Shown piece by piece: positions 29,300 through 30,874 of a stretch of DNA of 64,000 nt. Source of the DNA: Nitrososphaerota archaeon (GTDB taxonomy: Archaea; Thermoproteota; Nitrososphaeria_A; Caldarchaeales; Calditenuaceae); contig JAWBQR010000004.1 in the NCBI GenBank assembly GCA_038845265.1, positions 45,978-109,977 on the forward strand, in the 5' to 3' direction. The notes under the pieces were generated by a model that had not been told where the DNA came from, did no database searches, and was given only the letters and a program-made list of their open reading frames with translations. Made by a program: the position numbers and the translations under genes. Positions within the stretch are counted from its first letter, which is position 1, and the number at the start of each line of letters is the position of its first letter.

Positions 29300-29333
29300 G
29301 GGCCACGGTTCAGAGAAATGAACCCGCCACCCC
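29300..29333 (+). repeat. 5' half of 16S pre-rRNA processing stem (inverted repeat partner of 30843-30874)
   Basis: GGGCCACGG ... CCCGCCACCC just upstream of the 16S gene is complementary to GGGUGGCGG ... CCGUGGCCC just downstream. Internal AGAG/CUCU pairing suggests a bulge-helix-bulge-like processing site. Confidence 0.6.
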
Positions 29334-29339
29334 AGGCAG

Positions 29340-30831
29340 ACTCCGGTTGATCCTGCCGGACTCCACTGCTATCGGGGTAAGACTAAGCCATGCAAGTCGT
29401 AGGCCTCGGGCCACCTCGGGGCCTGGCGTACGGCTCAGTAACGCGTGGTCAACCTACCCTATGGAGGCGGATAACCCCGGGAAACTGGGGCTAAACCGCC
29501 ATAGTCGACCGGTTCTGGAATGGCCGGTCGACGAAAGTCCCAGGGACAGATGCAGTCTCTGGGAGCCATAGGATGGGACTGCGTCCTATCAGGTTGTTGG
29601 TGGGGTAACGGCCTACCAAGCCTACGACGGGTACGGGCTCTGAGAGGAGGAGCCCGGAGATGGACTCTGAGACAAGAGTCCAGGCCCTACGGGGCGCAGC
29701 AGGCGCGAAAACTCCGCAATGGGCGAAAGCCCGACGGGGTTACCCCGAGTGCCACCCTCGTGGTGGCTTTTGCCCGCTATAAAAAGGCGGGCGAATAAGG
29801 GGAGGGCAAGTCGGGTGTCAGCCGCCGCGGTAATACCCGCTCCCCGAGTGGTGGAGACTTTTACTGGGCCTAAAGCGCCCGTAGCCGGCCCTGTGTGTCC
29901 CTCGTTAAATCCGCAGGCCTAACCTGCGGACTGCGGGGGGTACTACAGGGCTTGGGGGTGGGAGAGGCGCTCGGTATTCCCGGGGTAGGGGTAAAATCCT
30001 CTGATCCCGGGAGGACCACCAGTGGCGAAGGCGGAGCGCCAGAACACGCCCGACGGTGAGGGGCGAAAGCTGGGGGAGCAAACGGGATTAGATACCCCGG
30101 TAGTCCCAGCTGTAAACGATGCGGGCTAGGTGTCGGGGCGGCTACGGGCCGCCTCGGTGCCGAAGGGAAGCCATTAAGCCCGCCGCCTGGGGAGTACGGC
30201 CGCAAGGCTGAAACTTAAAGGAATTGGCGGGGGAGCACCACAAGGGGTGGACGTTGCGGCTTAATCGGATTCAACGCCGGAAACCTTACCGGGGGCGACG
30301 GCAGAATGATGGTCAGGCTGACGACCTTACCGGACGAGCCGAGAGGAGGTGCATGGCCGTCGCCAGTGCGTGCCGTGAGGTGTCCTGTTAATTCAGGCAA
30401 CGGACGAGACCCGCACCCCTAGTTGCCATCGGCCGAAAGGCGCTGGGCACTCTAGGGGGACTGCCCCCGAAAGGGGGAGGAAGGAGCGGGCTACGGCAGG
30501 TCGGTATGCCCCGAATCCCCCGGGCCGCACGCGACGTTCAATGGCGGAGACAGTGGGATGCAACCCCGAAAGGGGAAGCAAATCCCTAAACTCCGCCTCA
30601 GTAGGAATCGAGGGTTGCAACTCGCCCTCGTGAACGCGGAATCCCTAGTAACCGCGCGTTACCACCGCGCGGTGAATACGTCCCCGCTCCTTGCACACAC
30701 TGCCCGTCGCTGCATCCGAGCTGGGCTGAGACGAGGGCTACTCAAGTTGGGTAGTTCGAGTCTCAGCCTGGTGAGGAGGCAGAAGTCGTAACAAGGTGGC
30801 CGCACGGGAACGTGTGGCCGGATCACCTCCT
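29340..30831 (+). rRNA. rrs: 16S (SSU) ribosomal RNA, complete, stand-alone (no 23S downstream)
   Basis: Starts ACTCCGGTTGATCCTGCCGGA and ends GGATCACCTCCT; about 1492 nt. Universal blocks GTGCCAGCCGCCGCGGTAATAC-like, GGATTAGATACCC, AAACTTAAAGGAATTGGCGGGGGAGCAC, TGCATGGCCG, GTCGTAACAAGG. GC-rich with Thermoproteota/TACK-type signatures (GCGCCCGTAGCCGG). Confidence 0.95.
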
Positions 30832-30842
30832 GAGAATGCCTA

Positions 30843-30874
30843 GGGTGGCGGAGCTCTCAGATGAGCCGTGGCCC
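30843..30874 (+). repeat. 3' half of 16S pre-rRNA processing stem
   Basis: See 29300-29333: GGGTGGCGG-agctctcagatga-GCCGTGGCCC is complementary to the upstream flank. Confidence 0.6.

Follow-up and report, generated by a model that had tools for sequence, protein, structure and literature searches.

A 16S rRNA gene that stands apart from any 23S rRNA gene raises the question of how its precursor is transcribed and excised. The question arises here from a 64-kb stretch of DNA (the window) from a Nitrososphaerota archaeon, contig JAWBQR010000004.1 of the metagenome-assembled genome (MAG) GCA_038845265.1, which reaches 29 kb upstream and 33 kb downstream of a 16S gene. We consider it highly probable that positions 29140-30916 form a self-contained unit for transcribing and processing the 16S in a thermophilic member of the Aigarchaeota/Caldarchaeales, a lineage whose 16S and 23S genes do not share an operon.

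The first description of unlinked rRNA genes came from Thermoplasma. A preprint by Brewer et al. classifies rRNA genes as unlinked when more than 1500 bp separate 16S and 23S; Aigarchaeota are not mentioned in it. The supplement of a study by Juttner & Ferreira-Cerca (2022; PMC8997704) shows the 16S gene of Aigarchaeota archaeon SCGC AAA471-J07 followed by an NADH-quinone oxidoreductase gene, and the 16S and 23S genes at separate places in the complete genome of Candidatus Caldarchaeum subterraneum (BA000048.1). A survey of circular rRNA intermediates (PMC12918454) reported that EndA cleaves bulge-helix-bulge (BHB) motifs in pre-rRNA and that RtcB circularizes the excised RNA. Across the many archaea of this survey, the BHB and circular 16S were found together or missing together, and 35 of the 78 archaea that circularize their 16S have separate rRNA genes.

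The 16S rRNA gene and its isolation

The 16S gene of the window is complete. In a search of the whole window it matched the Rfam family RF01959 with 1487.2 bits (threshold 50) over model positions 1-1478 of 1478 and was not truncated. The initial annotation had described the gene as solitary, with an AT-rich spacer and a converging thiamine-pyrophosphate (TPP) enzyme gene behind it and with the 23S gene located elsewhere, and all of this was borne out. No 23S or 5S gene was found in the 64 kb at the Rfam gathering threshold, the other RNA genes recovered being three tRNAs, and four archaeal 23S probes taken from linked control loci gave zero BLAST matches in the window. By both methods there is thus no 23S gene within the 1500 bp used by Brewer et al. 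The spacer between the end of the processing stem described below (30876) and the TPP gene measures 163 nt with a GC content of 36.2%.

Lineage and 16S-23S linkage across relatives

Relatives were collected by scanning one genome per GTDB species for a 19-mer of the 16S decoding region, which gave 59 stretches, and the organism was placed by 16S similarity alone. The closest named 16S genes are those of Aigarchaeota archaeon SKYB10 (93.5% identity), SKYB24 (92.2%), Archaeon HR01 (91.7%) and Pelearchaeum (91.5%), followed by Benthortus (89.4%), C. subterraneum (88.2%), Wolframiiraptor (87.9%), Terraquivivens (~87%) and Geocrenenecus (86.4%). Bathyarchaeia, Desulfurococcales, Acidilobaceae and Sulfolobales stand at 85% or below. 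The NCBI taxonomy assigns the close genera to the Nitrososphaerota, in the order Candidatus Caldarchaeales or the family Wolframiiraptoraceae, and 16S similarity accordingly places the organism in the Aigarchaeota/Caldarchaeales radiation. Two relatives with Caldarchaeales-type 16S genes are labelled otherwise (L023 as Desulfurococcaceae and L051 as Desulfurococcales), and these labels or bins look wrong.

The sample is non-exhaustive and its loci extend up to 14 kb beyond the 16S gene. It is unbiased with respect to linkage because the loci were chosen by their 16S signature and not by the presence of a 23S gene. Rfam searches of 31 loci, in runs of 18 and 13 and with up to 7.8 kb of downstream sequence, found no 23S gene in any of the Aigarchaeota-type loci among them. 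In five control loci (L069, L025, L047, L036 and L052) the same searches found a 23S gene after a spacer of 132-283 nt. When the control 23S genes were used as BLAST queries, all five controls and 13 further linked loci were recovered, and nothing was found in the Caldarchaeales-type loci. Each of the 43 loci whose 16S identity to the window reaches 85.3% or more lacks a downstream 23S gene, and the 17 linked loci that were tabulated are all at 85.0% or below. At least 1.5 kb of downstream sequence is available for 39 unlinked loci of the whole set. The only unlinked loci under the 85.0% line are L034 (80.5%) and that of the Asgard archaeon Njordarchaeum (L018).

These results suggest that the unlinked state extends to the whole Caldarchaeales-type radiation and ends sharply at its linked neighbours. 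The initial annotation had called unlinked genes unusual, which does not hold within this lineage, where they occur in every Caldarchaeales-type locus examined and had already been documented for Aigarchaeota.

Junctions in independent assemblies and sibling species

An isolated rRNA gene in a MAG could be an assembly artefact, in which the 16S gene was joined to non-adjacent sequence or an operon was broken at the internal transcribed spacer (ITS), the real genome having the order 16S-ITS-23S. The MAG origin of the window gives this explanation some ground, as do four contigs of the same species (L002, L003, L005 and L006) that break at or just before the rRNA gene and the many contigs of relatives that end inside the 16S gene; rRNA genes are hard to assemble. 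Both junctions can nevertheless be followed in other assemblies. Two MAG contigs from independent assemblies of the species, L001 (GCA_038858595.1) and L004 (GCA_038840355.1), span the identical order TPP-16S-epimerase with a full 16S gene and an otherwise empty gap; over positions 29200-30950 they are 99.1% and 100% identical to the window, respectively. An identical TPP protein is encoded on contigs of several assemblies, and the epimerase/dehydratase neighbour is also found in L001, L004 and L083.

Sibling species give the same picture. The JGI contigs L081 and L083 span both 16S junctions, and the gene order in L083 is TPP-DsrE-(TusA)-Pyr_redox-MarR-16S-epimerase. The 16S genes of L081, L083 and L001 are 98.9% identical to that of the window, and the 16S gene of L004 is 100% identical. 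A 354-kb contig (L007/L022), whose TPP protein is 73% identical and whose 16S 3' part is 99.3% identical, matches this order on the TPP side, but it ends inside the 16S gene and so does not reach the epimerase. In each species compared, a protein gene and not a 23S gene follows the 16S gene within ~60-160 nt. Since the junctions are reproduced in L001 and L004 and in the sibling contigs L081, L083 and L022, misassembly is not indicated. The initial annotation had named a 23S gene within a few hundred bp in the real genome, separated by a misassembly or the window boundary, as what would overturn its view; no 23S gene was found in the window, and L001, L004, L081 and L083 show the same junctions. 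Additionally, the complementary flanks described below carry both halves of one BHB, which is not expected from a chimeric join, and the 43 related loci lack a 23S gene while the linked controls assembled normally. We regard an artefact as scarcely credible.

Between the TPP and 16S genes, sibling species carry four genes that are absent from the window species (L007 11694-14031; L083 9620-11968). They are sulfur-transfer-like and encode a DsrE-like protein, TusA, a Pyr_redox_2/FCSD-like protein and a MarR-type regulator. Their absence in the window species reveals a four-gene indel directly beside the rRNA unit, and the position of the 16S gene itself is stable within the genus. Synteny with the TPP enzyme was not found beyond the genus, where the homologues in L010 and L011 are at most 54% identical and have a different gene context with no rRNA. 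A separate observation concerns L001, whose 16S gene differs from that of the window at 16 positions, all within ~380 nt (L001 ~12509-12890; window 29779-30160), with no difference in the flanks or the TPP protein. Such clustering suggests that strains were mixed in that MAG or that its rRNA gene was assembled as a chimera.

The processing stem and its bulge-helix-bulge-like site

The initial annotation had noticed two segments upstream of the 16S gene that are complementary to two segments downstream, and had proposed that they form the stem from which the pre-16S is excised. The pairing is real. Reverse complementarity is exact between GGGCCACGG (29300-29308) and CCGTGGCCC (30866-30874), and CCGCCACCC (29324-29332) can likewise be paired to GGGTGGCGG (30843-30851). 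For the second of the upstream segments the stated position was off by one, as CCCGCCACCC occupies 29323-29332 and nine of its ten bases are paired. Co-folding of the two flanks gave a longer stem than first noted, an interrupted duplex of 42 pairs between 29298-29338 and 30837-30876. Its energy is -64.6 kcal/mol, against -28.2 +/- 4.5 kcal/mol for shuffled partners and -22.1 +/- 6.0 kcal/mol (minimum -49.1) for 944 genomic pairs of 70-mers taken the same distance apart, which puts the stem ~7 SD beyond the genomic controls. A flank-to-flank stem formed in 12 of the 12 relatives that have both flanks, with energies of -58 to -94 kcal/mol. The proposal of an excision stem is therefore supported, both by an energy far beyond chance and by the BHB-like site inside the duplex.

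The same annotation had advised folding the flanks to find the exact BHB, and this located a BHB-like site between its two segments. Two 3-nt bulges lie on opposite strands with a 4-bp helix between them, as in a BHB. None of the close relatives shows a change in the central helix. Within the genus, UCUC-AGA-UG and GUGGCCCA are both kept in the 3' trailers of L022, L054, L081 and L083, and the bulge of the 5' strand, AAU in the window, is AUU in L081 and AAG in L077.

Comparison with the sibling species shows how pairing has been kept. In the outer helix of L081, G29308-C30866 has become U.G, U29310-A30864 has become C-G and the wobble pair U29309.G30865 has become C-G, all of which remain paired; one inner-helix change, G30848 to U, is uncompensated. 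The outer helix of L081 and L083 contains one extra G, so that the window and the sibling each have one small irregularity. L081 and L083 share the GAGA/UCUC core, and their inner helix is fully paired, GAAC with GUUC, where the 3' strand of the window reads AGC.

A strict BHB search, in which a 4-bp helix had to lie between 3-nt bulges on opposite strands and be enclosed by further helices, found canonical BHBs in eight loci of more distant relatives (L056, L042, L066, L023, L058, L055, L034 and L050); the enclosing helices measure 8-19 bp. These belong to other genera, and the flanks of L023 are identical to those of L066. The central helices in the canonical-BHB relatives are ACGC/GCGU, CACA/UGUG, CCAC/GUGG and GCAC/GUGU, with mostly A-rich bulges. 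Since their primary sequences are unrelated, conservation lies in the structure.

A different flank structure was observed in L043, a linked locus labelled Bathyarchaeia (85.0% 16S identity). Its flanks (~990-1068 and 2557-2610) form an AT-rich, near-perfect duplex of ~50 bp with no recognizable BHB. Some Bathyarchaeia have been reported to lack both the 16S BHB and circular 16S (PMC12918454), to which this duplex may be related.

Putative promoter, leader and base composition

Upstream of the 16S gene, seven sequences were compared. The block CTTATAAGGACCT, which contains the putative TATA box CTTATAAG, is invariant, the next 18 nt are variable and near-perfect conservation resumes from GGAGCCCAGGGC (29171). 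The putative TATA box lies 24-31 nt upstream of this point and has a purine-rich stretch resembling a TFB recognition element (BRE) directly upstream of it. The invariant block and the conserved leader indicate that the 16S gene would be an independent transcription unit. Beyond the stem, two oligo-T tracts (T4 at 30902-30905 and T5 at 30912-30916) are candidate termination signals. Archaeal transcription terminates at oligo-T, which makes these tracts plausible terminators.

Two Rfam matches within the leader, to the H/ACA RNA Pab19 (24.1 bits) and the C/D RNA snR76 (20.3 bits), were rejected as chance (thresholds 55, E ~0.3-0.4). A scan for sigma-70 promoters and intrinsic terminators was likewise disregarded, as the host is archaeal and the matches were no commoner than in shuffled sequence.

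The base composition marks the same unit. The GC content is 29.8% in the 114 nt before 29171 and 58% in the leader, it falls again in the spacer after 30876, and the boundaries of the GC-rich block coincide exactly with 29171-30876. The 16S gene has a GC content of 62.9% and the three tRNAs of 69-74%, against 41.6% for the remainder of the window. The contrast between stable RNA and coding DNA that had been pointed out initially is thus real, the background being ~42% and not 35-40% as estimated. Its reading as a sign of thermophily fits the relatives, which are hot-spring Aigarchaeota, and high 16S GC was argued earlier to be such a sign for C. subterraneum.

The decoding-site variant and the status of the 16S copy

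The 16S gene departs from the archaeal consensus at several near-invariant positions. The decoding site reads CACACUGCCCGUCG where the archaeal Rfam consensus has CACACCGcCCGUCA, changes which we take to be C1400U and A1408G in E. coli numbering. Further departures are CAGUGCGUG in place of CAGcuCGug and AACGGACGAGACCC in place of AaCGagCGAGACCC. The sites lie at 30693-30706, 30366-30374, 30389-30397, 30400-30413 and 30253-30273 of the window.

Such departures would be expected if the gene were an orphan extra copy, possibly divergent or decaying, beside a normal 16S-23S operon elsewhere in the genome. The same departures were found, however, in ~50 archaeal 16S genes of Caldarchaeales, Desulfurococcales and Bathyarchaeia, and so are lineage traits rather than decay. 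The idea of a divergent or decaying copy was rejected, as the 19-mer that carries the variant lies mostly in genuine 16S genes from Caldarchaeales, Desulfurococcales, Acidilobaceae and Bathyarchaeia. Moreover, the gene matches the whole model with a high score, species share its promoter, leader and BHB, and the complete C. subterraneum genome has been shown with its 16S and 23S genes apart (PMC8997704). With a 23S search that covered the 64 kb of the window, an orphan copy is very improbable.

The exact 19-mer is also present in the 16S genes of Njordarchaeum and Scotarchaeum. Judged by its distribution, the decoding-site variant reads as a broad trait of thermophilic TACK archaea, and it could affect universal primers and probes. 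Five matches to the 19-mer fell in contigs labelled as bacterial (L027, L031, L041, L061 and L070). Four of them lack any similarity to 16S and probably match by chance within other genes. The fifth, L070, is a 620-nt contig from an Alphaproteobacteria bin with an archaeal-type 16S end and a 23S start, and is likely bin contamination.

Several Caldarchaeales relatives have over-long 16S genes or split BLAST alignments (L045 1-1401, L050 2411-4538, L015 958-2850, L012 577-1974, and L017, L035, L046 and L063). Both signs indicate 16S introns, as in C. subterraneum. In the window itself, an insertion of ~20 nt relative to the archaeal 16S model occurs in a 5'-domain hairpin (29538-29565).

Proposed maturation of the 16S precursor

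The features of the unit are collected in Table 1. Transcription would start at ~29171 downstream of the TATA box, continue through the structured leader and the 16S gene, and end at the oligo-T tracts, which lie ~26-40 nt beyond the stem and ahead of the converging TPP gene. The stem that closes off the 16S is made by pairing of the final ~42 nt of the leader with the ~45 nt that follow the gene. EndA would then cut both bulges and release a pre-16S with ~20 extra nt at its 5' end and ~28 at its 3' end. RtcB would ligate this RNA into a circular intermediate of ~1.54 kb, which would subsequently be opened and trimmed. The window also encodes an intron-bearing tRNA, so that the organism needs an active splicing endonuclease. 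ARAGORN missed this tRNA in its default mode and calls it Pro(ggg) in intron mode; the long variable arm suggests Ser(GGA) as a candidate identity.

Several points weigh against this proposal. The promoter, start site, terminator, EndA cleavage and circularization all enter it as predictions. Covariation lends the leader structure no support, since hardly any position varies among the sequences; one compensatory pair in hairpin domain 2 (covariation term +0.12 among five near-identical sequences) is uninformative. The 23S search covered the 64 kb of the window, which leaves a small probability for an operon-linked second 16S gene elsewhere in the genome. Finally, the strict hBHBh' form requires helices of at least 2 bp beside both bulges. 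In the predicted fold of the window, the outer helix has 15 bp and the inner side has 1 bp, a 3x2 internal loop and then helices of 9 and 5 bp. As modelled, the motif is relaxed rather than strict, and cleavage at the 5' site may need an endonuclease of relaxed specificity or may not occur.

The weak inner helix leaves room for inefficient or alternative 5' processing, and thus for a maturation in which the stem is real but EndA and circularization play no part, the ends of a 16S RNA with its own promoter and an imperfect BHB being trimmed by other nucleases, as has been suggested for archaea without a 16S BHB. In keeping with this, the inner helix beside the 5' bulge is degenerate in the window, lineages that include Nitrososphaeria have been reported without circular 16S, and a separately transcribed 16S may not need EndA (PMC12918454). 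In that survey, however, missing circular 16S coincided with a missing BHB, whereas the window keeps the 4-bp helix and both bulges. The inner helix of the sibling species is fully paired, eight distant loci have canonical BHBs, and this conservation is hard to explain without selection for recognition by the endonuclease. Maturation without EndA is therefore unlikely, and excision at the BHB by EndA is the route that we prefer.

Table 1. Coordinates of the features of the 16S unit, its neighbouring genes and the intron-bearing tRNA (window numbering)
Feature	Position	Strand	Basis
CTTATAAG, putative archaeal TATA box, part of the invariant block CTTATAAGGACCT (29140-29152)	29140-29147	+	Conservation; putative function
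5' external transcribed spacer (leader), 169 nt; predicted start ~29171	29171-29339	+	Conservation, GC step
Leader hairpin domain 1	29174-29255	+	RNAalifold consensus; all pairs invariant
Leader hairpin domain 2, 13-bp stem	29265-29294	+	RNAalifold consensus; loop and apical pairs vary among relatives
Outer helix, 5' strand (15 bp, pairs with 30862-30876)	29298-29312	+	Cofold pair list
BHB central helix (4 bp), GAGA on the 5' strand, paired to UCUC 30855-30858	29313-29316	+	Cofold; invariant in all close relatives
3-nt bulge AAU, 5' strand, predicted splicing-endonuclease cleavage site	29317-29319	+	Fold; predicted cleavage
Weakened inner-helix start GAAC: only G29320-C30854 paired, then 3x2 internal loop	29320-29323	+	Fold
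Inner helices, 5' strand: 29324-29332 with 30843-30851 (9 bp); 29334-29338 with 30837-30841 (5 bp)	29324-29338	+	Cofold
16S rRNA gene, no intron	29340-30831	+	Rfam RF01959
Inner helices, 3' strand	30837-30851	+	Cofold
BHB central helix, 3' strand UCUC	30855-30858	+	Cofold; kept in L022, L054, L081, L083
3-nt bulge AGA, 3' strand, predicted cleavage site	30859-30861	+	Fold; kept in L022, L054, L081, L083
Outer helix, 3' strand	30862-30876	+	Cofold
Oligo-T tracts T4 and T5, candidate termination signals	30902-30916	+	Sequence; putative terminator function
Upstream neighbour, NAD-dependent epimerase/dehydratase, divergent from 16S	28100-29056	-	Pfam PF01370, PF16363
Downstream neighbour, TPP enzyme, acetolactate-synthase-like, converging on 16S	31040-32668	-	Pfam PF02776, PF00205, PF02775
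tRNA, 100 nt, 13-nt anticodon-loop intron, long variable arm	52508-52607	+	Rfam 47.4 bits

Comparison with known systems and significance

The closest known cases are SCGC AAA471-J07 and C. subterraneum. They belong to the same radiation as the window organism (16S identities of 86-93% to named Caldarchaeales and Wolframiiraptoraceae), and in all of them protein genes come directly after the 16S gene and the 23S gene lies elsewhere. The window organism is a different genus or species, and its 16S neighbours are the epimerase and the TPP enzyme, against NADH-quinone oxidoreductase C in SCGC AAA471-J07. The 16S gene of C. subterraneum has two introns, unlike that of the window. In the C. subterraneum MAG contig L050 a 5S gene lies ~0.9 kb upstream of the 16S gene and on the opposite strand (L050 1364-1480, - strand), whereas the window has none.

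The stem resembles those of Sulfolobus and Haloferax in its long flanking duplex, its 4-bp helix and its two opposite 3-nt bulges located ~20-30 nt from the mature ends. It differs from them in that the precursor carries only the 16S and not 16S-23S, and in that their strict hBHBh' form is replaced at the 5' bulge by an inner helix of 1 bp and an internal loop, with cleavage only predicted. As in the 35 surveyed archaea with separate rRNA genes (PMC12918454), a separate 16S gene keeps a BHB. Separate 16S and 23S loci with independent promoters are also found in Thermoplasma acidophilum, in Nanoarchaeum and other DPANN archaea and in Asgard archaea, lineages that are unrelated to that of the window. 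Degenerated processing stems have been tied to unlinked rRNA genes (PMC8997704), but the stem of the window is strong and its BHB is retained.

Unlinked rRNA genes in Aigarchaeota are known already (PMC8997704), as are BHB-retaining solitary 16S genes (PMC12918454), and by itself the present locus is one more genome in a documented pattern and matters little. The Caldarchaeales-type arrangement, on the other hand, had previously rested on two genomes in a supplement. A tentative proposal, for which we see slightly less than even support, is that the unlinked 16S gene, the retained BHB stem and the private promoter are together a fixed ancestral character of the whole Aigarchaeota/Caldarchaeales radiation (43 of 43 loci), missing from the linked lineages next to it and possibly a synapomorphy, and that the window species is eroding the inner helix of its BHB. 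If this is true, the species would be a natural test of how much BHB EndA needs outside a polycistronic precursor. Because the window species and its sibling (L081/L083) differ in BHB integrity, they offer a simple comparison for whether an independently transcribed 16S needs EndA, a question raised in PMC12918454. The unit also has value for annotation, as it provides exact coordinates for the BHB and the leader, together with those of the putative promoter and likely terminator.

Gene neighbourhood

Beyond the immediate neighbours of the 16S gene, an archaellin (archaeal flagellin) gene (25348-25947, + strand) adjoins two glycosyltransferase genes and the epimerase gene. This neighbourhood suggests a motile organism with a glycosylated archaellum.

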